The notes beneath the pieces were generated by a model that saw nothing but the letters and a program-made list of their open reading frames with translations, searched no databases and was not told the DNA's origin. A stretch of DNA of 64,000 bases from Cyanidioschyzon merolae (Eukaryota). Below, in pieces: positions 7,966 through 38,984 of this stretch. Each line of letters begins with the position of its first letter. The stretch's first letter is position 1. The position numbers and the translations under genes are program-made. Location of the stretch: NCBI GenBank assembly GCA_000091205.1, contig AP006501.2. One strand, written 5' to 3'.

Positions 7966-8286
7966 AAGAAGTGCCTTTCTGCGGAACACTGCGAACTGTT
8001 ATGGGTCCATGCGTCCACGCTGCACACGACCGTCGGTAGGACACGTGGCTGCACCGCGTTCCCCGTTCCAGTCCGGTCGATGCGGTACCGTCAACAACCG
8101 CACTGGAGACGTGCTCTTCCAGAGTTCTACCTACGCGTAAACTAAGACCGCGGCGGGTACGTGCGCTTCTTATGGACCCTCTGTGGGTACCCGGCAGAAC
8201 TCGCTAGCGGTCGGGTAACGAGCGCACCACTGCTACGGCTCCTGTACAGGGGCTTCGGCGACGGTGCCTGCGCACTCTCTTTTCTT

Positions 8287-8640
8287 TTCGCTCACCAAAC
8301 GTTTATGTTGTACCTGGATCCCTTATCGCGGGACGAGAACTGGCTATCGGGAAAACGCCCATCGTGATACGCCTCACCCTCAAGTTCCATTCCTTACAAT
8401 TCCTTTCGGATGTACTGGTCGTTTCATAGGTTGTAGCGAGCATCGAGTGCCCGTCGTGCTGCATCCACCTTGGCGCCTAGACAGCTGGTGCAGATGCACC
8501 TTAGAGACAGAACGGCTTTGCCGTACCACTGGGGGCTTCGGCTCGAGATGTGGTGCACCTGACACGGATTCGGAGTCCATCATCATGCTGGGGGCCTGGA
8601 AACTGCGCTGAAAGAGCTACCGTCTGCGGCAGCTCGAAGC
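8287..8640 (+). repeat. conserved ~300-nt structured module (copy 1). Candidate omega-RNA scaffold, element end or MITE
   Basis: Homologous to 38985-39338, 51556-51835, 56320-56620 (reverse complement) and partially to 18700-18790. Conserved core ggtgcagatgcacc ttagagacagaacgg ... gggcttcggctcgag, containing a hairpin GGTGCA-GA-TGCACC and a UUCG-type loop. Confidence 0.6.
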
Positions 8641-11616
8641 GACATGCCGGGAGTCCACTGCGACCAGGGCGACGCCCAGACGCAGCCTAACTGCTGCTCC
8701 TAGTCCCAGAGTCGACTGCGTTGCGGACGAGGTGTTCAGGTCGCACCACTGCACTAGGCACAGGTAAGGGCGTGAAGCACTAGTCTTGCAGACTCGTTCG
8801 GATTGCGGGACGTTTCGCCCTGAAGGCAAACTTTCGAAAGTATGGAAACCTTTTCGCCCTTTTAACGGCTACCGTGGAATGGGACAGGAATCGTTACATC
8901 GTTTCTCGTGAATCGTTCGTCTCTTTCCTTTTTTTCTCCGAATAGCGCGGTCGATAAGCACACCTGCGAGATCACGCAGTCACGAGAGACGACGCGCATG
9001 TCGCCGATGAAGGGAAACGCGTTTCTAACTATGCTCTGACCTATTGCCCTACCGTACATGTTGTATTCGAATTACAGGCGTAGCGGAGTACAGTTTTTTG
9101 AGTTCAATCGCGTTTGAAACGTCAAGTAAGCATATTCAAGTGATGCTGTGCGGTGTATAGGAGAAGCGTTCAATGTGCGTTCTTTCGCAGAAAAAATTCT
9201 AAAAAAGGAAAGTTATGAGAAAGCAAGTCGACGATCGCGGAGGCGCAGTGTCGCCGGCTGCCAGAAAAAGAACGAAAAACGGTGCCGAGCCCAGGAGCAC
9301 AGGCAAAGACGATGAAGCAGAAGCGGGAGGCCCTACGTCAAAGGCCGCGGGAAAGACAACAGTACGACGAGACGGTGGTGAAAGCGTACCTTCGTAAACA
9401 TATCAAGGATGCCTACAAGGAAAAGTTGCGAGAGGCCATCAGAAACCGTGTCGAGTCGTACTCCACGAGTACGAAGAAGGCTTCGTCAGGACTGATGCAT
9501 ATGATGAACGAGATGCACGACAACGCGACGGACACCAGAACAGTCGAGGTTCCGGGGGAATTTTTCAACAAGACCTTTGCTCGTCACCTGATGGTCGGCA
9601 CAGGGGAGCCGTCGACAAACAATGAGCGAGTGCACGCCTTCCACGAAAACTTCGCGGGATTCGGCTTCGAAGGTGCATCGATACAAGGGTTACGGGGATA
9701 TTCACATCTACGGGCCGATCGAGTACCTCGCGAACCTGAGGAACCATTTGACCATGAACCTCGAAGGTTTCATGATAAGCGCCGTGTTTGCGCTCTACCG
9801 GGGCCTCTCTCGCGGGGAAGAGATGGGCCATCTTCGCTGCCATCACCAACGATCGTCAGCATGAACAGGCAATAGAATTTGTCGACAAGATGACATCACG
9901 CAGGAGCATGAATGAAGCATATGTGATCGGTGCAGCTATTCAAGAGCGTCGTGGTGACACGGAGGTAGGGGGTTGGATAGATACTTCACCTCGCACTGAA
10001 AAAATATCACAAAAAGTAAGGAAAGTAAAATGCGCATAATCGGAGAACGCTGGCCCAAGTAAACGTTTTGTCCATGGAAAAAAAGAGCATCGTGAAGTCT
10101 TGGGGCTGGCCAACCCGACAGAAGACGTGTCAGATATGAAAAAAGTGAGAAAAGATGGTACCCCCGCATCCTGCGCTACTTCGTGTGTCTGGACCGAGAA
10201 CTCGAACGCAAGGCGGAGATGGTGCTGGGTGTGTGGAAAAATGAAGAGTCGCGGAGACGGAACGCTTTCCCAATGGGGAAGTGCTTCAACGTGGTTCCAA
10301 TGAGCAACATCAAGTCACATTTTGTGACTATCGACCAAGGCGTCCACTACGGCAACATGAGTGAGATCAGTCCGGTGTTCGGTGTCAGCAGGGAGGAGTT
10401 CACCGGTGAAAATCGGGAGACGTACCGGAAGAGTCTCTTCGGTTTCAAACGTCTCAAAGTGAGCAAGCAGAAGGTATTCACGGGGATGATCGGAACCGAT
10501 GGCGTAGCCACGTGTGTACGCTATCGGAGGTTTGAAGGCGGATTGTCCAGTTCGGCCTTCGATATCGCCCGTGACGAAGCATGAAGAAAACAGGGAGGAG
10601 GATCCTGCCACACAGAAAGTGCAGGATAACGACTTTGTCGTTGACGCGACGAAGCGTGAAGATGAGATGGAGGCGGGTCCTGCTACGCAGAAAGTGCAGG
10701 ATAACGACTTTGTCGTTAGTGCGGATCCCGGGAACACAAATATCATAACCATCGCAGTACCCAAGCGTGCGGAAGATGGTATCAACGGCAACCTACGTCA
10801 GACGGCCCTGCGAGTTTTAAGGTTCTCGTGAGCGGGATGCTATCGAGAATCCGGTATGATCAATGCGAGGAAGAAAATTGAGACACGGAATGCAGGAATG
10901 AAGGATCACCTGGAAGCTTTGCGCGGAGTAACGAGCAGAGGAGCAGGCTTTGAAGCTTTTCCGATATTCATGGAAGGTCGCGTTGCTCATTGGGATGCGC
11001 TGCTGGAGGAGTATACAAAGCCCCGGTGGGCTCGTCTGCGTATGAATCTGTACGGTGGTAAGCAGCGGGCATTCGCCAAATTTTTCAGTCAGTTGAGTGC
11101 CTTGAAGGAGGACGAGAGCCAGAGGCTGGTAGTGGCATACGGAGCAGGGCGTCCACAAAAGGGTGCACACCAGCTCCGTCGACGAGAACGTACAAAGCGT
11201 GTGCACGGCGCTTTGTAATGATACCGATTGATGAGCTCCGAACGTCCTATACACACCACGAACTGGGGTGCACACTTGAGACGGTCGACATGGAAAAGTG
11301 CCAGCGGAGTCCTGAAGATATGAAAAAGTATGGAGCGCTAACGGAGGAGCAAATGGACAGGAGGGCGAAAGTTCGTGGACTACTCGCATTAGTAAGTACA
11401 ATCAATGGCAAGAAACGCATGGAAATTGTTAACCGCGACTTTAACGCGGCTACCAATATAAGGAGGTGCGCGGTGATGGAGAGAAGACCTCCGTACTTGA
11501 CAAGAGGGAATTTTGTAGGGAAACCTCTCGAGGTGGAATTATACGAGAAAAAGTTGAAACCGGTAGTAGGTGGCCGGTCCAAAAACACTGGGATGCGTCG
11601 ACAAGTCTGTAGAAGA
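8287..11616 (+). mobile_element. Fanzor/TnpB-like (OMEGA RuvC nuclease) element, copy 1. Contains a 5' structured ~350-bp module and a frame-disrupted ~800-aa Fanzor-like gene
   Basis: About 99% identical to 38985-42308. Encodes RuvC-I-like [16 protein letters not shown], a TnpB-like DELRTSYTHHELGC (vdp.YTSq.C) and the RuvC-III signature NRDFNAATNIRRCAV. All family copies share a 3' terminus about 20 nt after the GGRSKK codons. Confidence 0.65.
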
Positions 11617-11628
11617 CTTTTCGTCTAG
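9215..11628 (+). pseudogene. Fanzor1-like TnpB-family nuclease gene, copy 1. It is frame-disrupted, with an extra in-frame TGA near 10829 that is absent in copy 2
   Basis: Consecutive ORFs 9215-9397, 9282-9875, 10183-10584, 10514-10831, 10856-11218 and 11218-11628 sit in different frames. N-terminus is K/R-rich and NLS-like (KRTKNGAEPRSTGKDD). RuvC-I is near 10709 and RuvC-III NRDFNAATNI near 11430. Confidence 0.55.
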
Positions 11629-12118
11629 GGCGCCGGTCACCACTACTTTGCACTACCGACCACAGCGTTTTTCTTTAGAAAGGCGTTTTTTGTCGGCGAT
11701 GTGAGGATTCTTTTACATGCTTAAAGTACTGCGTCAACCAGATCGAGTCCGTGTCTCGAGCTGAGCACTTCCGGTAGCGTCTGGTCGTCGGCCATTTGGG
11801 AGCACGCGCCCTAGACGAGCATCGTGTGTGTGGCATTACCTGTGTGGACCAGGTTTGTCAAGGGAAACAATTTCACGCTGAGTTCCAAAAGTTCGGTCCT
11901 TGTGTATTTTTGCTTGCCAGGAGCACAGGTCACCAGCAAGGAAGTTCGTGATCAGATACTGCCAAGATCCGACGAGTCGTGTAGCATCGTCCCGGAGATG
12001 TTAGGGCAGGCCCCCGAGCTACCACTCGCAAGCCACGCATTCGCCTCGCAGGTACGTGAATCATCGACAAGAAGCCGGATTCAATGGCACATCCTGAACA
12101 TCTCAGCAAATCGTGATC

Positions 12119-13669
12119 TCATTCCTGATCGTCGACGGGCTCGGTCTCAGAGGAATCGTGCAGGCGCTCATCCTGATCTGGTGAATGTGCCCTTTCGTGG
12201 CGATCCGTCCATCGACTCCGAGGCGAGGCAGCTCGTCGTGATGCCAAATCAACGCGCTGTCGAGTTGTAGCGTTGCTGTTCTCTGGGCGAGGTCTCAGTG
12301 CTGCCTGGGTGCCTTCCCCGGGGCGTCCTTCGGGCGAGCGGAAGCGCCGCCAATCCTCTTGCTGGAAACGGCCTTCTCGTCCAGCGGACTTGTCCAGGAA
12401 CGGTCGACGGGGGTCTGCTGCATCGCGTTGGACAGTTCCACGAGCGTAACCGATACTGATTTCCTGCCCCATGATGCAGGTGCCTTGGAGTTGATTAAGC
12501 GCTACCCGAGCATCTGCCTTGGAGGTAAAGCGAACGAAACCGTAGCCCAAGGAGTGGCCCCGTTGCCGATCACGTATAATGCGACAGCTCAACAGATCTC
12601 CATAGGGTGAAAACGCCGCAATGAGGTCGCTTTCCGTTACCATCGGAGCGAGATTCCCCACGTACAACATGACATCGATGTACGCATTGCCTGCGGAAAA
12701 GGTATCCGCGTCAGCTTTCGTCGCCCTCGCTGCCTCCGCGGCAAGTGCATCCGCGATCACTTTGCGAACAGGCTTTAGTCGTGCTTCAGCGCGTGCAGTC
12801 GCTTCAATGCGGGGAAGCGGTCTCACTCCCATGGTCGGCCGATCCGATACCAAAGTGTCTGCGGAAATGAGATCCATTGCGGATGCTACGAACTCGTGCA
12901 GGCACTGGGTGCACCGGCAGATGCGTGCGGTCTCAAAGAGAGACGCCTCAACCTGATAGCACATCGCGCACTCTGGGCACTGGAGATACACTGCATCCGG
13001 ATCGAGAAGCGGGCCTACATACTCATCCGCATCTTCGGTCTTAGACTCGGGCGAATCCAGTGACGGATCCGTATTCGATGTAGCAGCAGAAGCAGAAGCA
13101 GAAACCGGCGGCTGTATCGGATCTGTTTCTTGAGCGGGGACCTCTTCGTAAACCGGCTGAGATGCAGATTCGGGCGTACTGCTTTGCTCGGCGTAATGGG
13201 GCGCATCCGGTGGACTGTCCGTAAGCGCTTGGCTCGAATTTGCAGCGGTGGTGGGGAAAGACGCATGCGGCCCAGCAGATCCATGTATAGTTGCGGATTC
13301 GTCTTGCGGAGGGGCATTCGGGTACCGCGCTGGTGCTGCCGAAGGCCTCCATAACTGGTCGAGTTCGCTTCCAATCCATTCGCCGTCATCCTCATCATAA
13401 AAGGCGCGATTTTTGGTGCCTTTCATTCGCATCATCGGCTCAAGAGGAGTGATCCGCGGGAGCGATTTTCGCGCAGCACTCGTCGATCGGTGGCAGTGTA
13501 CAGTTCTGTGGAGCGCTCGCCAGTTAGCGGCTTGTGCGCTCGGTTTCAGAGCGTGCTGCTGCTGCTGCTGCCGCACGAGCAGCGGAAACCCAAAGCCAAG
13601 CATGCGCGAGCTGGCGGCTCCGTGCGAGAACCATACGGGCGTTGGGGCCATGCATTTCACGCGACCCAT
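12119..13669 (-). CDS. RNA-binding protein with a C-terminal RRM plus a CxxC..CxxC zinc-finger-like motif and an RD/RS-rich tail
   Basis: RRM: MLYVGNLAPMVTESDLIAAFSPYGDLLSCRIIRDRQRGHSLGYGFVRFTSKADARVALNQL. Zinc-finger-like: CPECAMCYQ..CRCTQC. The ORF starts with GTG; the first ATG is at 13669, and later Mets are also possible starts. Confidence 0.55.
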   Translation of the reverse strand: MGRVKCMAPTPVWFSHGAASSRMLGFGFPLLVRQQQQQHALKPSAQAANWRALHRTVHCHRSTSAARKSLPRITPLEPMMRMKGTKNRAFYDEDDGEWIGSELDQLWRPSAAPARYPNAPPQDESATIHGSAGPHASFPTTAANSSQALTDSPPDAPHYAEQSSTPESASQPVYEEVPAQETDPIQPPVSASASAATSNTDPSLDSPESKTEDADEYVGPLLDPDAVYLQCPECAMCYQVEASLFETARICRCTQCLHEFVASAMDLISADTLVSDRPTMGVRPLPRIEATARAEARLKPVRKVIADALAAEAARATKADADTFSAGNAYIDVMLYVGNLAPMVTESDLIAAFSPYGDLLSCRIIRDRQRGHSLGYGFVRFTSKADARVALNQLQGTCIMGQEISIGYARGTVQRDAADPRRPFLDKSAGREGRFQQEDWRRFRSPEGRPGEGTQAALRPRPENSNATTRQRVDLASRRAASPRSRWTDRHERAHSPDQDERLHDSSETEPVDDQE

Positions 13670-14323
13670 GGTATATGCTGAAGAGGCAGTACGAAAAGAT
13701 GCTCCTTGCTCTCGCAAAGAATGCTGCTGACGTCGCTGAATACGCTTCCCCACGCTACGGTAACGGCCGTGAAGAGCTCCGGCCGGTGATCGGTCCCGCC
13801 GTCCAAGGAAATGGAGAGACGACGACCTGCAACAACAGGCTCTGTTGAACAGCGTCAGTGTTTGTGTTTGCGGAGGCTCCACTGCGGCCCAAGAGGGGGT
13901 CGTCGTCTCTCTCGCTCGTCGCTCGGAACTACGCCGTCGACTCGCTTGGGTCAGGCAACGGCACCAAACTGTGATTTCGGCACCAGATCCTTACGGGTGC
14001 AAAGTCTCCGTCGACGCCCACGACACCGTTCCACAGCCTGAAGCGTTTGAAACGCTTTGGAGTCCGCCCAACACCAGCTGCGCTAGGAACTGGTGAGACT
14101 CGGCTTCGCGCCCAGTGCAGCGACGCCCTTCGCCCCTCGGTGACACCGTTTGCGCTCAGTAGCGACGGCACAGAGCACCGACTGTTGTTCCAAGCAAGAG
14201 CAGAGCGATACTCGTTGACAGCGGAGACTCCTAGTAGCGCCGGTCGCCTATCGCTCCAAAGTTTCCTCAGGGGCTACCCGAGCAAGGCAACGGGACGGCG
14301 TGCTGACAAAACGCAGATGTTGT

Positions 14324-15675
14324 CCGCGTAGAATGAAACTGGAACAATGTTCCGCTCGCTCTGCACTCGTCTTGCGATTTGATTCGCAAAAGTTCTTGGA
14401 TGCACAGCATCGATACGCCAAGTGCAGCAACAACGGCTTACGGACTCAAACGTAGTTTTCGGGATTCTCGGTCGGGCGTTTTTCTCTCGGAGTGACCTGT
14501 TCGTCGTCCATTCACCGCTGGAATGCGTTCCGTCGCCAGATTCATGTTGAGTCGCGCCACCCTCGAACCAGCGTCCCTGGCATAACCTATTTTATGATCG
14601 AATGCATTGGGGCAAGCATCCATTCTTCTGATTTTTTCAAGTATGGGATGCTCAAATCGCGCATTCCTCAATATGTCGTATCTCTATGTTTCGGGGCCAT
14701 TGGTGGATGCAGCGATTCGCGGCCCCGGATTCACGACGGCTCAAGAGACGCGATGTCGTCTCCTGGACGCTTGTGCACCAGCTGATGCCCAGAGTTCGCC
14801 GCAATGGTCTCAGGTCAAACGATCGCTTCCGTTCGAAGCACGAGTCCGCCGCTCTGCACGGCTATCGACGAAACATCGTCCGGCAGCAACACGAGCCTCT
14901 CACGGGATATGCATTCGAAGGCTCCCATCGCTTTCATTTGCATGAACAGCGGTCTTGGACTCGGAGTCGAGACGTCGCAGGAATCGCGGCCAGTGGAGCG
15001 CTCGGTACCGTACGGCACGAGCGGGACGTTGACGGATCCAAGGCGTTTTGGCCTGCTTGCCGGCCTGGACTTGACGCTTACGGTACTTGTTGCACGGTGG
15101 ACGGCATCGCGTTCCCTAAACCCTCCTTCGGATGGAACGCGCTGCACTTGCGCGTGCAGCGCACACCGTACTCGCCGATGCGATCTGCCCTGACTAGCGC
15201 CCGTGATCGTAGCGTACGGCACCGGGCGCGGAAACGGCGGAGCGCATACAGGGGATCCCGCGGTACCCGTCAAGACCGTGTATCGAGCGATGAAGCGCGC
15301 CTTCAGATGACGCAGTGCAGGGTGTGGCGGAGAACGTGCCGCGCGCACACAGGAACTCGTGATACGAGTCAGGAGTCACGGCTGCACCCCAGGAAGGCTC
15401 GTGAATCGCAACTTGCGCCTGTACATGAAGTGCGTCGACGATACCGGGGAGCTGCGAAATCGGGACGTGCACGTTGGCCTCAACATCGTTCAACAGCTGA
15501 CGTCGGAGCTGGATGTGCGGGAGGTACCGGCGTTTATCACTCTGCAGGGAATTCGGAGAAAAGAAAGAGGCAGGCACAGAAAGCGCACGACGACGACGCA
15601 TGGATACGTAGCAATCGGAAGAATCGGGAAAGATAGGTTGTGGGCGCGAGATTCACCTCGTGGACCTGTCAAGAT
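14324..15675 (+). repeat. 1.35-kb inverted-repeat arm A (partner 19528-20878)
   Basis: Coordinates map as x to 35202-x with near-perfect identity. ORF pairs 14686-15636 and 19566-20516, and 14438-14671 and 20531-20764, are identical. Identity breaks sharply at both ends. Confidence 0.85.
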
Positions 15676-15954
15676 ACATACTAGATTGGGTACTCTTGCA
15701 TGATCCTGAACGCGACAGCGCGGGTGGCGTCGCCGGTGATTGCCCACATCTGGAGGTCGCCGCGGCCGCTGCGGCGGCGTGCAGCCTTCCGCCCGCTTCC
15801 GGGCGAAGCGCGACGACGCCCCGACGTCCAAGAATGATGACGGAACGAGGCATCGCCGCAGTTTCGTGCATAGCGGACAAAAGTTTTCGCCATTGTGCAC
15901 TATTTCGGAACGGGCTGGAGCGCTTACGATAAAAGTATCGATCAGGTGATATCC

Positions 15955-16776
15955 ATGTTCGTTCAGGGTAGCATTCTGCGACACAGTTGCACGCTCGGAA
16001 AACGGAACTCGAGCTTCGCTGGTGGTGTTGCGGTAAGCACGGCGGCGCCAACCGCAGGGCTCGCCGCTGCCCGGACGCTGCGGTTGCGGACGCGTGGCTT
16101 CCGGTCGCTTGTTGCCGTGCATCAAGCAACGAGTGGCACGCACTCTATCAATTCATATACGACGGGCGGCCCAGTCCAGGCGCTCGGGCGATATGTACTT
16201 GTTCGACTGGACCGCAAGGAGACACAAACCGTTGGTGGTATCGTGCTGGCGGAGAGCGCACAGGAGAAGCCTTCTCGGGGCACAGTGGTGTCTGTTGGCG
16301 GTGGTGCTTGGCACCCGAACGCACCAGTCAAAATGCCTATGGCTGTCAAGCCGGGTGATGTTGTGCTCTTTGGAAAATATGGAGGAACCGAGGTAAAAAT
16401 GGACGACGAGGATCACGTCTTTGTCTCGATGGATGACATCCTCGGTGTATATGATGGAGGCAAAGTCGACGACCCGCAGGCTTTGAAACCTGTGTTCGAT
16501 CGCGTGCTCGTTCAAATGGAGAAGAAAACCGAGAGGCGGAGTGCAAGTGGTATTATCGTTGCACCCACAGCGAGCGTTGATGAGGACGCCAAGGCCGGCC
16601 GAGTCGTCGCTGTTGGCCCGGGTCGTTTTATGGTGAACGGCGAGTATGAGCCAGTGCCCGTCCAAGTCGGTGAGTGGGTCATGTTTCGCAAGTACAGCGG
16701 CTCGGAGGTGAAGTTTGGCGACCAGGAATACAACGTTGTGCGGATTGCAGATCTGCTGGCCAAATGGAAAGCGTAG
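15955..16776 (+). CDS. CPN20: plastid co-chaperonin Cpn20 (tandem double GroES/Cpn10 domains) with a transit-peptide-like N-terminus
   Basis: Two GroES domains: YVLVRLDRKETQTVGGIVLAESAQEKPSRGTVVSVG... and FDRVLVQMEKKTERRSASGIIVAPTASVDEDAKAGRVVAVGPG.... The ORF opens with GTG, so the first ATG (MFVQGSILRHS) was used. The N-terminus is S/T/A/R-rich. Confidence 0.8.
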   Translation: MFVQGSILRHSCTLGKRNSSFAGGVAVSTAAPTAGLAAARTLRLRTRGFRSLVAVHQATSGTHSINSYTTGGPVQALGRYVLVRLDRKETQTVGGIVLAESAQEKPSRGTVVSVGGGAWHPNAPVKMPMAVKPGDVVLFGKYGGTEVKMDDEDHVFVSMDDILGVYDGGKVDDPQALKPVFDRVLVQMEKKTERRSASGIIVAPTASVDEDAKAGRVVAVGPGRFMVNGEYEPVPVQVGEWVMFRKYSGSEVKFGDQEYNVVRIADLLAKWKA

Positions 16777-17304
16777 AGCAGGTATTGACTTGCCGATGAA
16801 GAATGCGCCCTTAGGAAATTGAGTGCACGCCCACCTATCCAAGAACTTAGCCGTGACCGATGCGGCCTTTGGAAAATCTCACGTAAAGCTGGATGTCCGG
16901 TTCAGGCTCTACGCAGGAGCGAGCTGCGCATTCCTGTGAGGTGCTGCACGCCCGTACGGAGACTCCGGTCGGCGGACTTGCCGTCGCTGGTGCATACAGG
17001 GAGCCGCTTTATCTGTTTTAAAAATGCGGTGCAGCATGGTCTGGTCCGGTCTAGAGCAGGGCGCTCCTCGGTTAGAAGCGTCTCCTCGTCCGCGCACAGG
17101 ACGGCGCTGGCGAACCGTTACCGTAGCAGCAAGTCGGCCGCAGTGCCTCACCAGACCAGTGTCCCCCACGACTGACCGAGACGCAGTCGGTGCTTTCGTC
17201 AAAAAAGCTGCGGACAGGCATTGCCTATCAAGCAGATAATCCAAAGGTTTCCGCAGCTGCATCGGATGCGCAACTGAATCAGCATACTTTCTCTATCTTA
17301 TGAT

Positions 17305-18114
17305 TCAGATTCCAACAACCGGTGCATCTGCCTGCGCAGTCTCCGCCTGGAGTGAGGCGGCCCCGCTGATCGCCGCGCCCTGCTCGAGACGAACGCCAGT
17401 ATCTTCGGGAGCATCGCCATGCACTTCCATGAGCTTGGTCAGGTCAAACTTCGGAGCTCGAATCAGTTTGCATTTGCGAATGTATACGTTTTGTAAGGGA
17501 TAAATGTTTTTGCATGCCTTTTCGATCTCCTTCCCAATAGCCTCTGGAATGATATTGGCAACGAAATCTCGTAGAGTGCCCTTCGATGTCTCTTGGACCA
17601 TGATATCCACCATCTTCTTCCGGATGGCGCGCTCCTGTGACTTTTTGCAGTAGCTTGTTTTTCGAATCTGCCCCTGCCGCCGCTTTGTGAAACCAATACA
17701 GAACAGACGCAAAACGTAGTCATCCAAGGTCTTCACATCGACATGAGCTTCGATGGTGGTCTGCCACTTTCGCATCATCGAAGACAGCTTATCGCGCGTA
17801 AAGTCGAAACCATAGAACTGTGTCAAGCAGTTCCGTCCCTGAACATCCTCGCAACGAAGCTTGATCTTGCGATATGCGAGGTCTTCATCTTTCTGCAGGT
17901 CCGCCAGTGAGATCTCGAAGACACGTCCTTTGAGTGACTCCGATGCTATTCGAGTGCCAGAGGTTTTCGACACGATTGTCTTTCCCGCCTGTCGGACAGA
18001 AAAGTAGGAGGGCGCCTTCACGTCATACCACTCCTTGCGGGAGTAGGGATCCAATATCTTTTTCTTGCTTCCCTTCTTTCCCTTGGAGAGACGCTTGTTC
18101 TTGCCCTGGGCCAT
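17305..18114 (-). CDS. RPS3A: 40S ribosomal protein S3a (eS1)
   Basis: [38 protein letters not shown]... is the canonical eS1 N-terminus. 269 aa with a real ATG. Confidence 0.9.
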
Positions 18115-18699
18115 GGTGTTCGCTTATTGCCTCTGAGCGAGTAGTGATTCGTTCCGTTAACAACACAGCGTTGCCGCGGACACAACGCTCGATCGTTGGT
18201 CTATCCAGAAAGAGGAGATCCGCCAGCCTGCAGCGAAGCGATGTTTCCTCCTGTCGTGTGCAAACACTCTGAAGCGCAACTCGTGGACGATTGGAGACCG
18301 GCGCGAATGCGACGCTGCGGACGGCACGACGAGGCGGTGTGTCCATTTATTACCATCTCGTACCATCTTTTCCTTTTATGGACTTATTTGGATCAGATGG
18401 AATCGTCCTGCACGACGAGGTGTCGTGTCCTTTGATTGCAAGTTTATCTGATTTGTTTCGTTCATTACAAAGATGTAAAAGATATCTTTCGTAGTCCCTG
18501 CATGTGCGTTCCGCTTATGCGTGTGTGACACCAAATTCATGCCGACCTGTGAGCTCAGATCGCGCACTCGATACCCGTGGTTGGGAAGGTGTCCATGATT
18601 CTAAGCCCCGCCTCCATGTTCGATGACCTACACTTCTCCTCGGCGACACTAACTGTTTCGTATGCTCCATTGTACGCCGGGCCTTCACGAAGCGGTCTC

Positions 18700-18790
18700 A
18701 TGAGCGCCTAACAGCGCCTGTGCGGAGGTTGCTCGGAGACAGAACGGCTCTGCCGCACGACCGGGGAGGCCGGCTCGAGCATACATGTTT
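18700..18790 (+). repeat. partial, diverged copy of the conserved structured module core
   Basis: ggagacagaacggctctgccgcacgaccggggaggccggctcgagcatacatg aligns to the module core ttagagacagaacggctttgccgtaccactgggggcttcggctcgagatgtggtg. Confidence 0.4.
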
Positions 18791-19527
18791 CATGAATGGC
18801 TCATTCGGATCCGCATTCGTCGCTGCGATTGCCCATGAAGAGCTGCGCTGCGCTTGGTGACTGATTTCTATGCACTCTCTCCGCAAACTGAAGAAAACAC
18901 GCCTGCAAGGTTGCAGTGACGGTGTCGCATTGATAAATAGCATACATTCTACTTTGCACCCGTCAAGCCGTCACAACGCAGATGATGCCGTACCGGACAC
19001 CTGAGGTCACTGGCATCAGGACGCATAAGGAGCGTGTAGCTAATCTCAGCGCGCTATGCGCAACCGCGCGGCTCGCCAAGAGAGCACCAACGCTGCACGA
19101 ATCGGGAAGATGCGGCACGCGGGTACACATGCACGTGGCATCGCGATGACTCTGTCCGCGAGTGGACAGATCGAGTATGGGGAGACATGCCCCGCCATCG
19201 CACCTAATGCAAGGCCTGTATTAGGGATCAATACCCATTTCTGCGCCCGTGGAAGCATGTGCATATTGTCCAGGGCGTTTCTGTAAAAGCTCTGAGAGCG
19301 CACAATTGTGCAACCATCCTGTACATGAAGTCACCAGTCAATAAGTCCCAGTACGAAGTATCGACCGAGACTCGAACTGTGCAGGATCGTACATGCTATT
19401 GGCGTGTTCGTCCTCGTTTTTCGTGCGGCAGAGCCGTGGAACTTGCCTCACGAGTATTCACGCTGCCAGGTACATCATATCTGCGAGGGTTCCAGTCAAG
19501 CCCAGCCTACATCTATGCCGGGATCAA

Positions 19528-20878
19528 TCTTGACAGGTCCACGAGGTGAATCTCGCGCCCACAACCTATCTTTCCCGATTCTTCCGATTGCTACGTATCC
19601 ATGCGTCGTCGTCGTGCGCTTTCTGTGCCTGCCTCTTTCTTTTCTCCGAATTCCCTGCAGAGTGATAAACGCCGGTACCTCCCGCACATCCAGCTCCGAC
19701 GTCAGCTGTTGAACGATGTTGAGGCCAACGTGCACGTCCCGATTTCGCAGCTCCCCGGTATCGTCGACGCACTTCATGTGCAGGCGCAAGTTGCGATTCA
19801 CGAGCCTTCCTGGGGTGCAGCCGTGACTCCTGACTCGTATCACGAGTTCCTGTGTGCGCGCGGCACGTTCTCCGCCACACCCTGCACTGCGTCATCTGAA
19901 GGCGCGCTTCATCGCTCGATACACGGTCTTGACGGGTACCGCGGGATCCCCTGTATGCGCTCCGCCGTTTCCGCGCCCGGTGCCGTACGCTACGATCACG
20001 GGCGCTAGTCAGGGCAGATCGCATCGGCGAGTACGGTGTGCGCTGCACGCGCAAGTGCAGCGCGTTCCATCCGAAGGAGGGTTTAGGGAACGCGATGCCG
20101 TCCACCGTGCAACAAGTACCGTAAGCGTCAAGTCCAGGCCGGCAAGCAGGCCAAAACGCCTTGGATCCGTCAACGTCCCGCTCGTGCCGTACGGTACCGA
20201 GCGCTCCACTGGCCGCGATTCCTGCGACGTCTCGACTCCGAGTCCAAGACCGCTGTTCATGCAAATGAAAGCGATGGGAGCCTTCGAATGCATATCCCGT
20301 GAGAGGCTCGTGTTGCTGCCGGACGATGTTTCGTCGATAGCCGTGCAGAGCGGCGGACTCGTGCTTCGAACGGAAGCGATCGTTTGACCTGAGACCATTG
20401 CGGCGAACTCTGGGCATCAGCTGGTGCACAAGCGTCCAGGAGACGACATCGCGTCTCTTGAGCCGTCGTGAATCCGGGGGCGCGAATCGCTGCATCCACC
20501 AATGGCCCCGAAACATAGAGATCCGACATATTGAGGAATGCGCGATTTGAGCATCCCATACTTGAAAAAATCAGAAGAATGGATGCTTGCCCCAATGCAT
20601 TCGATCATAAAATAGGTTATGCCAGGGACGCTGGTTCGAGGGTGGCGCGACTCAACATGAATCTGGCGACGGAACGCATTCCAGCGGTGAATGGACGACG
20701 AACAGGTCACTCCGAGAGAAAAACGCCCGACCGAGAATCCCGAAAACTACGTTTGAGTCCGTAAGTTGTTGTTGCTGCACTTGGCGTATCGATGCTGTGC
20801 ATCCAAGAACTTTTGCGAATCAAATCGCAAGACGAGTGCAGAGCGAGCGGAACATTGTTCCAGTTTCATTCTACGCGG
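19528..20878 (-). repeat. 1.35-kb inverted-repeat arm B (partner 14324-15675)
   Basis: Reverse complement of arm A. The spacer 15676-19527 carries the Cpn20 and RPS3a genes. Confidence 0.85.
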
Positions 20879-22039
20879 GTGTAGACTCTTGATAATGCAA
20901 GGATCGGATTGCGCGCAGATGTGCAACGCGATACAGCTCGAAAGGCGCCGCATGGATACGATGAAGACGAATCATAGCGCAATCCGCTGTTTCATGTAAG
21001 CAGCACTCTGCTTCGACTCCCTCATGACGTCGGGAGGCAGCATTCTGTGCAGAGATGACAGCGGCCTCTGAATCGCATCAATTCCATACGAACGCAGAGC
21101 ACGATTCGCTGTGCAGACAAATGTTATGAAGGGTGTTGAGATGCTTGGAGGCGTGCTGGGCTGCCTTTGCTAGAGTGCTTACTTCCGTGCTGGTATCGAA
21201 AACATCATACACATTGTGTGGTGAAACGCAGTCTTGCAGCACCACTCCCTAGGCGAATACACATTCTGTAAGCGCGAGGCATCGAGTCCGTCTGGTGCAC
21301 CCGTGGATGCACCCGCTCATCACCATAGCGCATCTTGTGTAGGGACACGGTATAGGGGCGGGGGTTCCGAACGCGGTGCTTTTGCTCGATTGCCACCGTT
21401 TCGCGGATACGTGAACGTAAACTGGTCAGATCGACGAATTCGATGTGCCTTGGCGGTCCGGTTCAAAACCAATATTTGCTGATGCACAGCGGAAAGACCT
21501 GTCCACAAGAACCAATCCTAGAAGGTGTTTGAATGAACCCCGAGGCAGACATCCAAGACAGCTCGCAAAAGCCACCACCAAACATCACTAGGCATCTTAT
21601 TTGCAATCTTCATCGCATCTTGCATTCTACATTTGACGCAATTCAGTACCGACGCGCATGTCATCCCGAGAGACATGCAATCGAAGGAGCTGGACCCAGG
21701 TCGTATAGAGACGAGCCACTTCGCCTTTGCCCCATGGGAAGGACTAACGGATGCTTCCGTTTGTTTTCCCGAACTCATGGTTGGACTTCCGATACGCTCG
21801 ATGCCTCCGCATGACACTATAAAAACCAGATCATGACGTCTCCGAGCGCGCACCTCGTACGCAGGGCTCCATACCGACCTCCGGCGCCAAGAGAGAAGCT
21901 CACATCTTCCAGGTCGCTCGACTTGGATCCGATCGTCCTGCTCCAGCCTCCATAGTTTGCATGGCGACACATGGGTGTATCACGATTTTCGTGAGCATTT
22001 GTGGTAAGCTGCGGATCCGCATCCAGATGTCTCTGCTTG

Positions 22040-23233
22040 TCAGACGTTTCGCAGATACTCCATGGCCGCTTCCTGTGAGAGAAACACCGGAATCGATCGA
22101 CTTGCCGAGACGCAGCCAGGCGGTGGTTCTGCTGGGCCTTGAGCCGGCATCCATGACCATTCGACCGTCCATCGGAACGGGACAGCTTCCTCGCGGGTAA
22201 CGCTCGGCTTTACCCAGAGACAGAGAAAACGCACACCACAGCAGGCAGCGTGTCGCATCGCTACCGCAAATGCCGGATCGATCGACTCTGCCGGGCAGAG
22301 CGCTCGCGGCGGATCACTGCGCTGAACCACAAAGATGACCAGAGCCTGCACCGGCATCTCAGGTCGTGCTCTGGGATATTTCGCTGACCCACGGGCAATG
22401 CTCGCAAGTTCCTGCAAATGGCGACTCGCTCTGTCCGATACAGCATCTGGAAAAAGCACTAAACCCTCTGCGGAACCACGCATGGTAACCGATTTGACCT
22501 CGATGAAAATGCGATGATCGAGGCAAAAGTCGCAACGACTTGTTTTCCTTGTTTTCGTTGTGGAAGCTTGCCATGCTCCAGTGTCTGGAGGAGCGTTTTC
22601 GCGTCGTCTGCGTTCAGTATCCGGATCCTGGCGTGGGAGGCTCGTCTCGCGTTCGACCTCATGGAAATGGAAACGTGGAACGGCACGCGGCTCCATGGCG
22701 TTATCTCCCGCCTCAACATCGGACAGCGCTTCACCGATGGCCTCCATGAGGCATGGAGCACGACTTTCGAGCGCCTCCCCAATGAGTCGGTTCGCCGCCA
22801 ATGTGTGGACACAGACCAAGGCCCCTGTGCTCGGCTCGGTGGCGATAATCCAGCGAAATGGATGCTTGGCTTTCGCTCCGCGATCAACTGCCGCCAGATA
22901 GACAGCAGACTCGTTCGGAACAGCGTACCCCTTGGCTGGAGCGCCTTCGTCGCCACCGGTCATGCGACCTGGGTTCAGCACGCTGGCAGTGACCTCCGTC
23001 CCGTCATCGAGGCGCACTCGTGCGAGGAAACGTTTGTAACGTTCGAGAAGAACGCCCCGAAGAAGCGCTGACATTCGCGTGGTCTGCATATTGGAATCAC
23101 TGGAGACTACCGGCGAGAGAGCAGCTGGGCACGAAGCCCCGGCACGCTTGAAACTCGTTTTGGTCAAACGAGGTGGCCCAGTCGAGTTTCGTTCAGGAAT
23201 AGGGTGTTTTCGTATTCCACGACATCTCTGCAT
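22040..23233 (-). CDS. SfsA (sugar fermentation stimulation protein) homolog with an N-terminal extension, possibly organelle-targeted
   Basis: Core ERYKRFLARVRLDDGTEVTASVLNPGRM matches the bacterial SfsA N-terminus (RYKRFLADV...HCPNTGAM). The ORF opens with GTG; the first ATG is at 23233, and the core begins at a later Met (MSALLRG). Confidence 0.6.
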   Translation of the reverse strand: MQRCRGIRKHPIPERNSTGPPRLTKTSFKRAGASCPAALSPVVSSDSNMQTTRMSALLRGVLLERYKRFLARVRLDDGTEVTASVLNPGRMTGGDEGAPAKGYAVPNESAVYLAAVDRGAKAKHPFRWIIATEPSTGALVCVHTLAANRLIGEALESRAPCLMEAIGEALSDVEAGDNAMEPRAVPRFHFHEVERETSLPRQDPDTERRRRENAPPDTGAWQASTTKTRKTSRCDFCLDHRIFIEVKSVTMRGSAEGLVLFPDAVSDRASRHLQELASIARGSAKYPRARPEMPVQALVIFVVQRSDPPRALCPAESIDPAFAVAMRHAACCGVRFLCLWVKPSVTREEAVPFRWTVEWSWMPAQGPAEPPPGCVSASRSIPVFLSQEAAMEYLRNV

Positions 23234-25365: not shown

Positions 25366-27864
25366 GCGACGTCTACGTACCTCGCCGGGGAACCAGCAGC
25401 AAGCATCGTTGTGGTGTGCGTCGGACCGAACGCTTCTCGATAGACGGGCTAGATTGGGTCCGCAGCGACGCCTTGCGAGCACCTTCACCAGCGGTATCTG
25501 GACATTAAAGGTTTGTATTCGGGAACGGAATGTTTGGATTGTACAGCATGCGGAGAAACTGCTGCGGCACGTATAGGGCTTTGGGGATAAGCGCAAAGGC
25601 GGGACCTTTGGTGCCGTTGCATTAAGAATGATAGTTTATTTTCTTATTTGCCGCGAAGGATTTGTTCTCCGTGGCCTAGGATGAGATCATACGATCTGTA
25701 AAGCTTCACACATGTTGTGCATGTTTCCAGGGCGACCGTGCTCGAGCGCCGAAGAAGGGTTTCGCAGGGTACTTGCACCGCAGCATGCATGGTCCGCGCT
25801 TGCTGCTCACCAATATTAAAAACCTCATCCATTGCCCATAGTGGCGTTGAAGGATCCAGAAAAAGCAAGTCCTGCTGTGTGCGTCTTGTGCCGATATGCT
25901 GCGGACGCGAACCTCCATGAGGAACGCGCTCAGGGAACGGAGAAAATTGCCCTTGCTCCGCAGTCATTCTAGGAAGGATTTATGGTTTTGGTCTTTCTGG
26001 CCTCTAGGTTGACACCTTTTGAGGATGAAAGACCTCGTACGCACGGGTCGTTCTCGCGGTGGTCCATGTGATTACCATGTCCATAGGTGGGATCGTTCCA
26101 AATCCAGCATCCCTTTCGGATGCGAAACGCTGCGGTTCGGAGCACTGATCTGGTGGTATGCATGTGGATACCGCGTTACCCGGTGACAACCAGGCTGTGA
26201 ATTTTCACTTTATGAAATCTGGCTCAGCATAGCACGCGAGTCGCTCATTGGTGCAGACGCTCACCCACATAGGTTCAAGCCACGTCAGGCAGCAGTGACG
26301 AGAGCGTTGCAGGCTATCGCGGCGGGACGCAGAAGCTGATGTGGCATAAACGTCCGGGAACGGCCTTGATGCACCGATCAAGGCTCCGTAGGTCACGCGT
26401 GGTAGATATGTATATGAAGTTGTAAAAGTTGCGAGTCTGGCGTCCGTGATCCATCTACAGCAGCGCCAGATTTGCATAGAAGACTGCACCGCTAGCGCTT
26501 CTTCTGCTTTTCGATTTTTCCGAACTGATGTTAGATGCAAAGCCTCGATATTTGAAGTGTAGCAATGAGGGCGTACGTTTTCGTGCGTAGTGCTAGAGAT
26601 CTCTGACCCATTCACGGAGAAGCGCGTTCGACGCTTTGCTGGCGGGATTCGTCACGTCACCGCTATCACGAAGATTCGCGATGTTCTCGAGCAAAACATT
26701 CATATCTATGTGGTGCAATTATTCAATGCATACGCACAAGTGTCCACTTGTCTCCCTTGAGTACGTCTAACATGCTCAAAACATGCATTGTTCAAGATTT
26801 GACCTTCTGTTTCAGGGAAACTTGAGGGCGCAACAGTTCGCACCGTTGGATTATCATGGAAAAAATACTCGACGTCGTTTTTTGAGGAATTCCTAAAAAG
26901 CTCATCCCGAAAGCTCACTGAACCCGTCACGTAAACTGCTCGATTCCGTTCGAAAAATGATTCTCTTCCCTTGGTAGTCATCAATGAAACGGCACTCGAC
27001 AGCCGTATGATACCCCTCGCAGGGCATGTTCTCAGAGACTATCTTCTCGACTGTTTCCATGGAAACCAGTCTTGGCACCAGACTTTGATCGCAACGATCG
27101 CTACCAGTGGAGCTATCGTTACTGCATGGCACGAGGAAAGGGTATACGGATCGACACTTTTCGACCTGTTCTCTAGACTGGATTTTGCCTCCGGTACTTG
27201 TTCCATCATGGACAACACCGCGTTCCGAAAAATCCGTCATCGAATGGAACGGCATGCGCTTCCATGTGCAGCGAAGCGTATACTTGTTAGGTGAATCGTC
27301 CAGAAGAAGGCCACGATCGCAGGGCACGGCACCGGATAAGAAAACAGATCAGAGCAATGAGAGCAGCTTTCTGTAACCGTGAACTGTGCGTATCGAGCAA
27401 TGGAGCAAGCGTTCACGCGCTACATTTGGGCCGGTTTGGAGGAAGTTTGACGGATATACTGTAGAGCTTGTCCACATTCAACTGTCACCGCTGTGAACGG
27501 CGCACCGAGGCTATGCATAAAGGAGATCGACCTGACGAACGAAGCATAGACCACAACTACCGCCTATCCGTGGTATGCATCAACAACCTCCGGAATCAGC
27601 GTCATTGAAACCTGAGCGCTACCGTCAACTTCCCTCGACTGCGGGCAACAGATCTGTAGTGGAAGAGGCGACCGGCTGATTGAATGCCGAAGATAGTAGG
27701 GTTGAAGCGCAGGCATTCTTAGAATAAAGCTCTTAAATTCTTATGTTGATGATAGTGGGAAGATAACCACACATTCGTGTGTTCGTCTGGGGAAGAGCCT
27801 ATGTCCTAGTTTAGAGTAACATGGCAGTGAAGCGAAAAATGTACCATGACGATATGGGGTAAAT

Positions 27865-28135
27865 TAATATCCACTCACAGGCACCCCGCAGCCTTTTTCG
27901 ACCAGCCCCCTGTTATCGGCTTCAGCTTCTCTCCGTACACTTCGAGCCCGAGAGGCTACCCCACGGAGTTGGATGGCGCCAGCTCCTCGGATCTCGTCTT
28001 CAGCACTAGACATCATCTCATCTTGATGGCGGCGTTGAAGTCTCGGTTCACAAACTCCTTGCATCCATTGCCGCTGGTGGAACACATTCATGCAAGGATT
28101 CCTTGAACTCGCGCCCTCTATGCCATTACAGTCTC
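27865..28135 (-). pseudogene. degenerate Fanzor/TnpB C-terminal fragment (RuvC-III NRDFNAA retained, then a stop)
   Basis: Reverse-strand translation gives RVQGILA*..NGCKEFVNRDFNAAIKMR*. The sense ORF 27846-28106 matches the antisense of Fanzor copy 1 (HLILMAALKSR vs HLLILVAALKSR). The 3' end ggctggtcgaaaaaggctgcggggtgcc aligns to the family 3' terminus. Confidence 0.55.
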
Positions 28136-28786
28136 GTAATCCTTCTATTGGGCAAACATATTTTTGTTTGCCTATCTCCCCTCCCCCTCTTCCTTTTCGA
28201 TATATGCTCTTCTTCACTCGTTAGTCGGCAAGAACAGAAACGTTTATGTGTTTTTCCTGCAGCCCGTAATGAAGGCCCTCCACCATCCCCGACTTCCATG
28301 TCCATACCTCTCCCTTGTATTTTTCATTTCTTCAAATGAACGTACTTCGAACACATCTGCTATAAACAGCGAATAAGCGTTTGATGATACGCTTCTTGAG
28401 ATGGAACCTAAATGAATCGAAAGAGTAGAGGAGCCAGACGGGTATGAGGTCGAAACTAATCTGAAACAATTTAGTATAAAATTTGCAACTGCGGTACGCT
28501 GGACCCCCGCGATCGCTATGAAGCGTTCCCCGAAATCATTTTCATACCAGTAATTCTCTTACTTTAACCAGAGGCCAGACTTGGCGCGGTACGAGATTCT
28601 CAGGCTCTTCCTCTAAGTTTCTCAGTGGAACAGGGACCGACGGCGTCACTGTTGCTGTTGCGGAAGAGTCCGAGCTCGTGCTTCGTCTGTGGCTTTCGGA
28701 CGCGAAACACTTGTTGCTAACAGGCAGCTCACACACACGCACAGGAGCGTACCAGTGCTCCGCGACGTACGGTGATACTCGACTGC

Positions 28787-31137: not shown

Positions 31138-32327
31138 ATTGTTTGACTCGGAATAATGAATTCTGAAACACCTGCATCAGCACGCCCTGTTTGTTTTTTC
31201 TACGGGTATTCAAGAGGAGTGTATCTTGCACACCGGAGAAAGGTCGCCGAACGACCTTATGTCGTCACTGCTTCCTCATGAGAAAGCCCGCTTTACTAGT
31301 GCACGGCAGACATTCTCCGGACAGCCTCGCTTCACACACGAACAAGGCTCTCTGCAAAAAGAAGCCCTTTACAGCAATACAGACCCGTCCCGGACTCCGA
31401 GCGCCCTCGCGCCCCCATCACTGGCATCGGGGTACGACGGGCACCAGGCGGCACACCGGCATGTAGAGTGACGGTGCAAGGACCGTTCTCACCGGCCTGC
31501 GTAGCGTATCCAGCAGAGGCGCACGCCTTCTCGGCTTTATTCAGAGGTCGTCCGTGAGCGTCCAGACGTCTCATGCGGACGCTCTTCGGCATGTATGCAT
31601 GAGACTGCGCTGGGCGGTCGCCAATGGTTTCGGTTGTACGCAGACAAGACGGGTGCGTTCCCCAAACGGCTCAGTGACGTGGGAAAGGAAACGACTGAGC
31701 AGTCGCGTCGTCCGGTGGGGAGCCCCATCGAGCGGCACCCGACGCGGCGCACGAGGCCTGTGATCCCGCTTCATCGACCGGAGCTTCCCGCGGGAGCAAG
31801 CATCGACGCTGCACTGTGCCCATCGATGCGTTCAGGGCGTTATGCAAGCGGCACCAGCACGGGCACACGCTGAGGCGGGCACAGAAGAAGAGCGCGAAAC
31901 ATGCGCGCTCGGATGCACCGGATGGTAAGCGATAAGCAGCGTGCACGTCAGACGCAGAGCCAATCGCAAGTGAGCGGCTCGATATCGCGTGATCCAGCAA
32001 GCAACCATGCGCGCAAGCACTCTCTGCATCACGACTTTAATGCCTCGGGCGACATCCGGGACTGTCTGATGCATCGAGAGCATCCAGTGAGTATTACGTC
32101 GAGCGAACCTTGCGGCAATCGTTTGGTACCCAGTGGGCGCATTCTGCTGCAATGCTGCGGATATCCGTCAAACAGAATACGAATCCATGGGAGAGCGGCA
32201 TGTTTTGCCTTGGTGGATCACGGCACTGGTGTGGTGCTGCTCAGCAATGCGGAAAGCATTGAGCGCGGTACGGATACTCTGGGGACGATTTGCGTCCGCA
32301 ATATCTGAAAGACAATAATGTTTCAAT
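31138..32327 (+). repeat. 1.19-kb direct repeat, copy A (partner 35204-36393)
   Basis: About 97% identity at a constant offset of 4066 bp. Many ORF pairs are identical (for example 31191-31466 and 35257-35532). No RT/integrase and no TG..CA LTR termini seen. Confidence 0.8.
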
Positions 32328-32458
32328 ACTCTAGAGTGTTGGGTGTATACGATGAAAAGGTGCTCAAACCGGTGCAGGCTTTCTTCATTTCTAGCGGATT
32401 CGATCACAAGACGTTGCCACTCGTTGACATCTTTCAACATTCCGAGAACGTAATCCCA

Positions 32459-33562
32459 CTATGCTGCATGCACGATAGTGCGACATGGTGGCAAGTAGCC
32501 TCTAATACGCAGTCGTTTCTTGCGCTCGCGAGGTCGTGCTAAATCAAGCATTCCTGGAGGCAGGTCAAGCACGGCAAGCTTCGTAAGCGATGGTGGCTGC
32601 GTCTCTGCATCCGCGGCTCCTTCATGAGCAGCGATATCCATTTCCTGTACAAACGCTTCTAGAAAGGGAACCTCGAGACTCCGGTTGCCCTCGAAAAGAA
32701 GCAGCTCCAGTGCGTCATGTGCACCGCCATGCTCATTTCGCAGGATCACACCCGCAACTCGTCCCAGGCAATGCTTAAACACCCACTCTCTGGTCCATAA
32801 GAAATCCGCTTGCGCCTGAAGCTTTTCAAGAGTCTCTCGTAAGATAGCTGGTCGTCCAATCCACTCAGTTATAATATACTCATCGGCGCCCAGTGACTGC
32901 GGTCGTTGCTCGCTTTCATGGACATAGAGACATGCACCGCGAAGTTGGCTTGCCGCATCACGATCTTCGACGCCGCGAACCCGAATAATCCATACGTTTG
33001 CTTGCGATGCCGGGCGACCATCCTGAACCCATACAGGTCGAGGATAGACCCGGTGTGCAAGTTTTATATAACGCTGTGCAGGTTCTTTGGGAAGCCGTTC
33101 CCTCGCAAAGTCAGTATTCAAACGAACCTTGCACTCACCGCGAACCCCGTGAGGCCCAGCAATGGTTCCAATCTCTATAAAACCGAAACGGGAAGGATCA
33201 TAGGCTGCTGCTGCTGCTGTCGCTTCCGATCCGATATCTGCAGCAGCAGCTGCAGTCCCGTCATCGAAGTCCAACTCGTTCGGGGTTCGCGAATGACGCC
33301 CATCGAGCGCGTCTGGATCGCTGTAAATCACCAGTGACACTAGTCTTCGACGTTGCATGGAGCTCAGGCACCTCTTCTGGTTCTCCGATTCCAACACCAC
33401 GGAACCAAATGTCAGTTTTCGGCGCTGTACAAGCTGAGTCAAGTCGCTCCGGCTCTGACACCCGATACGTCCCCCGCTTGAACAGAAGCCGTTGACGTGA
33501 CTCCAGCACACCAGCGTCCGCGCAAGTTTCCTGCTTACCAGCAAGCTATTCACGTCCCGCAT
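32459..33562 (-). CDS. RimM-domain protein (16S rRNA processing / ribosome maturation factor), likely organellar, with N- and C-terminal extensions
   Basis: FGFIEIGTIAGPHGVRGECKVRLNTDFARERL...DEYIITEWIGRPAI resembles the RimM N-terminal beta-barrel and PRC domain. Real ATG start. Confidence 0.6.
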   Translation of the reverse strand: MRDVNSLLVSRKLARTLVCWSHVNGFCSSGGRIGCQSRSDLTQLVQRRKLTFGSVVLESENQKRCLSSMQRRRLVSLVIYSDPDALDGRHSRTPNELDFDDGTAAAAADIGSEATAAAAAYDPSRFGFIEIGTIAGPHGVRGECKVRLNTDFARERLPKEPAQRYIKLAHRVYPRPVWVQDGRPASQANVWIIRVRGVEDRDAASQLRGACLYVHESEQRPQSLGADEYIITEWIGRPAILRETLEKLQAQADFLWTREWVFKHCLGRVAGVILRNEHGGAHDALELLLFEGNRSLEVPFLEAFVQEMDIAAHEGAADAETQPPSLTKLAVLDLPPGMLDLARPRERKKRLRIRGYLPPCRTIVHAA

Positions 33563-38860: not shown

Positions 38861-38984
38861 GGCTTGATCGTCACCAGTTGCTACCAGTACGCACTGTTGT
38901 TCGCCAAACGATCGAGAGGCGACGTCGATGAGCGCGTCAGCATCTGGCAATCGCGCCGACGCGCTCGAGTCGGTGACTTTTTTC

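Follow-up and report, generated by a model that had tools for sequence, protein, structure and literature searches.

Near-identical inverted repeats bracket a Cpn20-RPS3a cassette that is reversed in the Cyanidioschyzon merolae 10D reference genome relative to related lineages

In the red alga Cyanidioschyzon merolae 10D, a segment of chromosome 19 that carries the genes for the chloroplast co-chaperonin Cpn20 and the ribosomal protein RPS3a is bracketed by a long inverted repeat. The locus was studied in a stretch of 64,000 nucleotides (nt) of contig AP006501.2 (assembly GCA_000091205.1), called the window below; coordinates are positions in the window. The left arm of the repeat occupies 14324-15675 on the plus strand (1352 nt). 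The right arm, on the minus strand at 19527-20878, is the reverse complement of the left arm with five mismatches. Between them lies a spacer of 3851 nt (15676-19526, not assigned to a strand), which we describe as an invertible cassette on account of the gene order in outgroups and of both junction sets found in environmental contigs. Cpn20, also named CPN21 (15955-16776, plus strand, 273 amino acids), carries two Cpn10 domains in Pfam (E=7e-52) and matches exactly BAM82806.1, the chloroplast CPN21 precursor of C. merolae 10D. A distance of 280 nt separates its ATG codon from the arm's inner end. RPS3a, ribosomal protein S3A or eS1 (17305-18114, minus strand, 269 amino acids), is identified by the Pfam domain Ribosomal_S3Ae (E=7e-78) and by an exact match to BAM82807.1, the 40S S3A protein of C. 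merolae 10D. The two genes are therefore convergent. The unique flanks are marked on the left by a gene for an RRM-domain protein (12119-13432, minus strand) and on the right by an SfsA homologue (22040-23074, minus strand), both colinear with the outgroups.

The repeat was established by a repeat search, by blastn of the window against itself and by direct base-by-base comparison of the arms. The first two methods gave a single inverted pair for these arms. The third gave an identity of 99.63% (5 mismatches in 1352 nt). Because the match extends over 1352 nt at 99.6%, it is not due to chance. In the numbering of the arm, the mismatches are at positions 112 (14435 on the left, 20767 on the right), 113 (14436/20766), 356 (14679/20523), 399 (14722/20480) and 1099 (15422/19780). 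Complementarity is lost abruptly at all four ends, outer and inner, and just 7 of the 39 next positions match beyond the outer ends. Independent assemblies break exactly at the arm boundaries: Logan unitigs (k=31) reach 30 nt past the boundary, and a large number of other contigs about 127 nt, or 244 nt in k=141 assemblies. A previous description of the locus, made from the letters of the window and hereafter the sequence-only reading, had proposed an inverted repeat with few mismatches and sharp boundaries around a 3.85-kb spacer with the Cpn20 and RPS3a genes. All of this was confirmed, as were the limits of the left arm and the end of the right arm at 20878; only the start of the right arm had to be corrected, from 19528 to 19527. 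The differing peptides VVSLCF and VGSLCF, given there as an example of divergence between matching reading frames, reflect the mismatch at 14679.

The locus was compared with three outgroup loci found by a Cpn20 search. One is from Cyanidiococcus yangmingshanensis (L045, GCA_013995675.1). The second (L046, JGI 3300041539) is considered a separate lineage because its genes are only 70-79% identical to those of the first. The third (L047, ENA ERZ1300892) is more distant, with a Cpn20 52% identical. All three show the order GluRS(-), TPMT(-), SfsA(+), Cpn20(+), RPS3a(-), followed in the first two by RRM(+) and actin(+). Once reverse-complemented, the window reads GluRS(-), TPMT(-), SfsA(+), arm, RPS3a(+), Cpn20(-), arm, RRM(+), actin(+). 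BLAST comparisons showed that the flanks are colinear with the outgroups and that the Cpn20-RPS3a cassette alone is reversed in 10D. Since three outgroups have the opposite cassette orientation within colinear flanks, the 10D arrangement is a derived inversion, provided that the orientation in the 10D reference is correct, and each of its two breakpoints lies in an intergenic interval occupied by an arm. Cpn20 and RPS3a are at their ancestral locus and, therefore, were not captured by a mobile element. Neither an inverted repeat nor any arm-like sequence was found in the first two outgroup loci, in which intergenic DNA is too diverged to reveal an arm homologue; in Cyanidiococcus, the gap between SfsA and Cpn20 is about 580 nt. 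Literature searches on CMS509C, an annotated gene within the left arm, and on inverted repeats or inversions in the C. merolae nuclear genome retrieved no report of this locus.

The arms themselves look non-coding. The left arm contains a 316-amino-acid, arginine-rich open reading frame (ORF) at 14686-15636 (plus strand), annotated as the hypothetical protein CYME_CMS509C (BAM82805.1). The right arm contains its mirror copy at 19566-20516 (minus strand), with two different residues; the protein collection contains no exact match to this copy, which is apparently unannotated. None of the six arm ORFs has a match in Pfam. When the 316-residue sequence was searched against 5.8 billion proteins, no homologue was found beyond its own cluster of C. 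merolae-like variants. This cluster contains 27 distinct protein sequences as compared to two for RPS3a, which is of similar length. In tblastx comparisons of the arm with its two relatives in the window (see below), matches shift from one frame to another and occur on both strands, the pattern to be expected of DNA that does not code for protein. At the variable sites of the arm, 22 at first and 25 with further loci added, synonymous changes were not in excess in any of the six frames. The frame of CMS509C showed 8 synonymous changes, 16 non-synonymous changes and one stop change, no better than the other frames. Because Pfam gives no match, homologues are confined to its own cluster, tblastx frames shift and no frame is constrained, CMS509C is probably a chance ORF in DNA rich in arginine codons rather than a real gene. 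This agrees with the sequence-only reading, which had seen neither recognisable coding sequence nor transposase in the arms and had regarded their arginine-rich ORFs as spurious. As for RNA genes, Rfam at gathering thresholds gave nothing across the whole window, a permissive Rfam search of 14000-21200 gave only a sub-threshold miRNA-like match inside the 3′ end of RPS3a, and a tRNA search found none.

Two diverged relatives of the arm are present in the window. The first, at 26461-27415 (plus strand) in the TPMT-GluRS intergenic region, corresponds to arm positions ~1-982 with 59% identity. The second, at 62389-63104 (minus strand), corresponds to positions ~145-973 with about 60% identity. 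Their local alignment scores are 160 and 132, respectively; no other part of the window scores above 21, and shuffled sequence gives 18.5. As judged from these alignments, arm positions ~1-982 belong to an old dispersed non-coding repeat family; positions ~983-1352 are not common to the other members. The homology to the 26461 copy starts where the outer boundary of the arm would fall, which suggests that this boundary is a natural end of a repeat unit. As to whether the arm is itself a common repeat, a point raised by the sequence-only reading, the two relatives at about 59% identity do exist, but no other near-identical copy was found: in a scan of the JGI metagenome collection with a mid-arm 40-mer, 5 of 5 matches were at this locus. 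Every environmental contig that leaves an arm outward enters only the RRM or the SfsA flank.

The locus was further inspected for marks of transposition. No direct repeat indicative of a target-site duplication was found at the flanks (...GATGTTGT before the left arm, GTGTAGAC... after the right arm), including at the positions 14324 and 20878 pointed out previously, and none was found in the swapped configuration either. Tandem Repeats Finder detected no tandem subrepeats in the arms, and no terminal repeats were found within an arm. The other genes of the window are ordinary housekeeping genes, including actin, 6PGD, GluRS, RimM, MRG, TPMT and SfsA, together with genes for isoamylase, a WD40 protein, PAPS reductase, a DUF1499 protein and a RabGAP. 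According to Pfam, there is no transposase or reverse transcriptase among the window genes. Nor is there a recombinase gene in or beside the spacer, where Pfam identifies Cpn20 and RPS3a only, with RRM and SfsA as neighbours; a site-specific invertible switch driven by a recombinase was therefore rejected.

We then examined the orientation of the cassette in environmental sequences. Dozens of contigs, 99.2-99.9% identical to the window, were retrieved via the 10D proteins. A 'C. merolae 10D-like' alga is present in JGI-assembled short-read metagenomes and metatranscriptomes from Lemonade Creek, Yellowstone (PMC11662350), and we infer that many of the samples are of this kind.

All four junctions between flank, arm and spacer occur among these contigs, from assemblers that cannot phase a 1.35-kb repeat with short reads. 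The 10D orientation, with the SfsA flank joined through the arm to the RPS3a end, is seen in Ga0080006 (L001/L014/L027) and in Ga0078972 (L013), whose contig extends just 11 nt past the arm. The ancestral orientation is seen as the SfsA flank joined through the arm to the Cpn20 end (L003/L016, L004, L006 and L026) and as the RRM flank joined to the RPS3a end (L002/L011). Thus, the ancestral orientation appears in five independent assemblies and that of 10D in one or two, with at least two assemblers involved. Because the two isomers give one and the same assembly graph and neither short reads nor their inserts span the arm, this tally is only suggestive of both orientations existing in nature. 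Single-nucleotide polymorphisms of the arm did not decide the phase, since informative sites are 260-700 nt apart and haplotypes are shuffled. Overall, the sequence-only reading, which had deemed a flip-flop inversion permitted by the structure, is supported insofar as the structure is tied to an inversion of the spacer: the spacer is inverted with respect to three outgroup lineages, and both junction sets occur in environmental assemblies.

Some environmental contigs (among L017, L019 and L022-L025) stop or switch to unrelated sequence at 18240-18280, and others of this set begin at 15698-15823. Metatranscriptome contigs would be expected to end at 18240-18280 if the RPS3a mRNA begins there, ~130-165 nt before the ATG codon. 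The starts at 15698-15823 are as expected for the 5′ end of the Cpn20 mRNA. Because these presumed mRNA ends are located ~25-150 nt from the inner end of the arm, the Cpn20 promoter may overlap the arm. Four contigs with junctions at 18240-18258 (L017, L019, L023 and L024) were considered as structural variants and rejected as chimeric contigs, probably metatranscriptomic: they end at the 5′ end of the RPS3a mRNA and each runs on into a different unrelated sequence, one of them folding back on itself.

K-mers of 127-141 were long enough to phase variable sites close to unique sequence. At arm position 103, both A and T occur on SfsA-flank arms and on RRM-flank arms alike. At the other end, position 1261 is C or G on Cpn20-end arms and on RPS3a-end arms alike. 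Position 735 is T in both 10D arms and C in every environmental arm. Since a crossover within the arm cannot swap variants between the arms of the two flanks, the shared variants point to non-crossover gene conversion. Concerted evolution of the two arms is thus indicated, from few sites.

Taken together, these results lead us to propose, with a probability of about 0.65, that the cassette was turned around, once or more, by homologous recombination between two inverted copies of a non-coding repeat specific to the lineage, that gene conversion keeps the copies alike, and that the orientation is possibly still polymorphic. The starting point would be inverted copies of a 1.35-kb non-coding repeat of the C. 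merolae lineage, one in each of the intergenic regions bordering Cpn20-RPS3a. Recombination between these copies would have turned the 3.85-kb cassette at least once, which would explain why the 10D orientation is opposite to that of three related lineages. C. merolae recombines homologous DNA efficiently, and this is the basis of its gene-targeting methods. The same recombination machinery may act in two ways: non-crossover exchange would keep the arms 99.6% alike, and crossover exchange would invert the cassette. Either orientation would leave each gene beside the same 1.35 kb of arm, so that a flip should be close to neutral. The orientation may still vary in natural populations, and we infer that recombination between the arms both caused the inversion and continues to flip the cassette. 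As for the origin of the two arms, the inverted segmental duplication offered by the sequence-only reading is possible.

Several points weigh against this proposal. Both orientations of an inverted repeat produce one and the same de Bruijn graph, so that contigs crossing the arm may have been joined arbitrarily; all the environmental assemblies are probably short-read, and many of their contigs stop about 127 nt into the arm. The inversion itself depends on the orientation of the 10D reference, which is taken as given. In addition, the divergence between the arms (0.37%) is not clearly below that between 10D and environmental sequences (~0.5%), so that the case for homogenisation rests on the few shared sites. 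Finally, there are no target-site duplications or other transposon hallmarks to explain the origin of the two copies.

An alternative, which we hold to be unlikely but the most serious of the competing explanations, is that one event created both the inversion and the repeat, either by staggered breaks around a 1.35-kb segment or by a template switch during replication. Fill-in repair would then leave the segment duplicated, in inverted orientation, at both breakpoints, with no need for later flipping. Ranz and colleagues reportedly proposed in 2007 such a staggered-break model for many Drosophila inversions. A single event would explain the repeat and the inversion relative to the outgroups together. 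It fits the missing target-site duplications, the missing transposon hallmarks and the sharp boundaries, as well as the arm divergence, which at 0.37% is close to strain divergence, as if the duplication had occurred shortly before the strains split and no conversion had followed. However, contigs in the ancestral orientation (L002, L003, L004, L006 and L026) carry a full arm at both junctions, which this scenario forbids unless they are misassembled or the cassette was re-inverted. Moreover, the polymorphisms shared between arms at positions 103 and 1261 require later exchange, and the coincidence of the outer boundary with the end of homology to the 26461 copy would be fortuitous if the breaks were random.

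It is also conceivable, though in our view rather improbable, that the repeat is real but that a choice made during assembly set the orientation of the spacer, either in the 10D reference or in the contigs that disagree with it. In that case there would be no inversion, or a single orientation throughout C. merolae. The arms exceed Illumina reads and inserts and are about twice as long as a Sanger read, so that assemblers cannot phase them; many contigs break at the arm edges, and a split of 5 versus 1 or 2 is compatible with arbitrary picks. Against this, the 10D orientation recurs in an independent assembly (L001/L027) and the ancestral one in five assemblies made with at least two assemblers. 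Furthermore, the 10D genome was presumably finished from Sanger and bacterial artificial chromosome sequences, in which the five arm differences and paired clone ends should permit phasing.

The sequence-only reading had considered a very large foldback-type element with captured host genes. That the 6.55-kb unit as a whole represents such an element, or a composite transposon, can practically be discarded: long terminal inverted repeats with sharp ends and an arm related to a dispersed repeat family would suit it, but Cpn20 and RPS3a never moved and have the same neighbours in three outgroups, no target-site duplication is visible in the present or swapped configuration, the arms have no tandem subrepeats, terminal repeats or transposase, and the 40-mer scan of the JGI collection showed neither the unit nor the arm a second time in another context.

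Inversion by recombination between the repeat copies thus remains our preferred explanation. It can be carried further, to a cassette that flips actively and reversibly in the nuclear genome, with the two orientations coexisting in hot-spring populations and perhaps in clonal cultures, driven by ~1-kb non-coding repeats that lack transposon hallmarks and are spread through C. merolae intergenic regions. We regard this extension as tentative, and doubtful on present data. If it were true, two very highly expressed genes would change direction with respect to their neighbours, which concerns read-through from SfsA and the direction of replication, and an effect on expression would be possible.

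Other repeats were observed in the window. A direct repeat of 3.35 kb (8285-11635 and 38980-42332) has copies 98.7-99.3% identical and 30.7 kb apart. It is ~51% GC, with a strongly purine-rich plus strand and 75-nt tandem units at 10570-10717 and 41265-41412; its 234-amino-acid ORF has no match in Pfam. The RRM-actin interval, only ~300 nt long in Cyanidiococcus, contains one of the copies, which is also present in an environmental contig (L036). A second direct repeat, of 1.2 kb (31138-32350 and 35204-36416, 98-98.7% identical), brackets RimM (32459-33562) and MRG (33873-34868), the order of which is the same as in Cyanidiococcus. This pair could mediate deletion or duplication of the RimM-MRG cassette. 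A second inverted repeat, with 257-nt arms 97% identical (51555-51811 and 56329-56585), surrounds a 403-amino-acid ORF and the DUF1499 gene; the segment it brackets is not inverted with respect to Cyanidiococcus (L048).

Shorter modules also recur between genes. A first module of 250-630 nt, with copies 62-71% identical, is found on the plus strand at 8282-8909, 38926-39604, 51516-51814 and 18529-18779, and on the minus strand at 55970-56594. The copy at 18529-18779 belongs to the spacer, upstream of RPS3a; it is 62% identical to the module found upstream of other window genes and matches 8293-8547, 38988-39242 and 51586-51816. Each copy precedes a start codon by ~100-700 nt, the genes concerned being actin, 6PGD, PAPS reductase, RPS3a and a 446-amino-acid ORF, and the orientation relative to the downstream gene is constant. 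The module may be either a repeat associated with promoters or an element with a preference for insertion upstream of genes. Another non-coding module (27827-28392, 51817-52345 and 63125-63429 on the plus strand, 11260-11599 and 41955-42294 on the minus strand; 62-70% identical) is variously combined with the arm-like repeat and the upstream module, forming an intergenic mosaic of common blocks. Finally, a palindrome of 44 nt, 95% self-complementary (45874-45917), separates the 3′ ends of the isoamylase and WD40 genes, which are convergent; it might be the hairpin of a terminator that serves both directions.

C. merolae is a model alga, the genome of which is considered fully finished and nearly free of repeats. 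Our results suggest that unannotated non-coding repeats of kilobase scale shape its intergenic regions, and a micro-inversion may distinguish the reference strain from wild populations. Such a repeat-bounded inversion also calls for caution in the design of gene-targeting constructs and in read mapping at CMS509C, Cpn20 and RPS3a. It offers a small natural test case for mitotic crossover versus gene conversion in this organism.

The locus is best read as a repeat-bounded inversion of a well-known kind, not as a giant transposon, and it calls for no new mechanism. A close parallel is found in inversions mediated by non-allelic homologous recombination between inverted low-copy repeats, such as the human FLNA-EMD inversion at Xq28, reportedly described by Small and colleagues in 1997 and by Caceres and colleagues in 2007, the flanking repeats of which are said to be 11.3 kb long and more than 99% identical. 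There too, near-identical inverted repeats enclose two housekeeping genes, lineages differ in orientation, as populations may do internally, the two arms show concerted evolution, and the immediate surroundings of each gene are unchanged by the flip. However, the C. merolae structure is about ten times smaller (1.35-kb arms, 3.85-kb spacer), its host has a compact, repeat-poor and usually haploid red-algal genome, and the polymorphism is only suggested here, by short-read contigs.

A second parallel is with plastid genomes, the flip-flop isomers of which, with large inverted repeats around a small single-copy region, were reportedly recognised by Palmer in 1983. Common to both are an inverted repeat and copy correction between its arms and, as proposed here for C. 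merolae, homologous recombination that would yield two orientation isomers. In contrast to the plastid case, the present repeat lies on a nuclear chromosome and not in a multicopy organelle genome, its arms are non-coding and without rRNA operons, and equimolar isomers within one cell are not expected in C. merolae. Ectopic recombination between oppositely oriented transposon copies causes inversions, as with Ty in yeast and Galileo in Drosophila buzzatii. As in those cases, oppositely oriented copies of a dispersed repeat stand at the two breakpoints; the arm differs from these elements in having no coding capacity, terminal repeats or target-site duplications, and only two diverged relatives in the window. 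The locus resembles the staggered-break inversions attributed to Ranz and colleagues in having inverted intergenic copies exactly at the breakpoints of a derived inversion. Two observations are not predicted by that model: both arms are present in contigs of the ancestral orientation, and some polymorphisms are common to the two arms.

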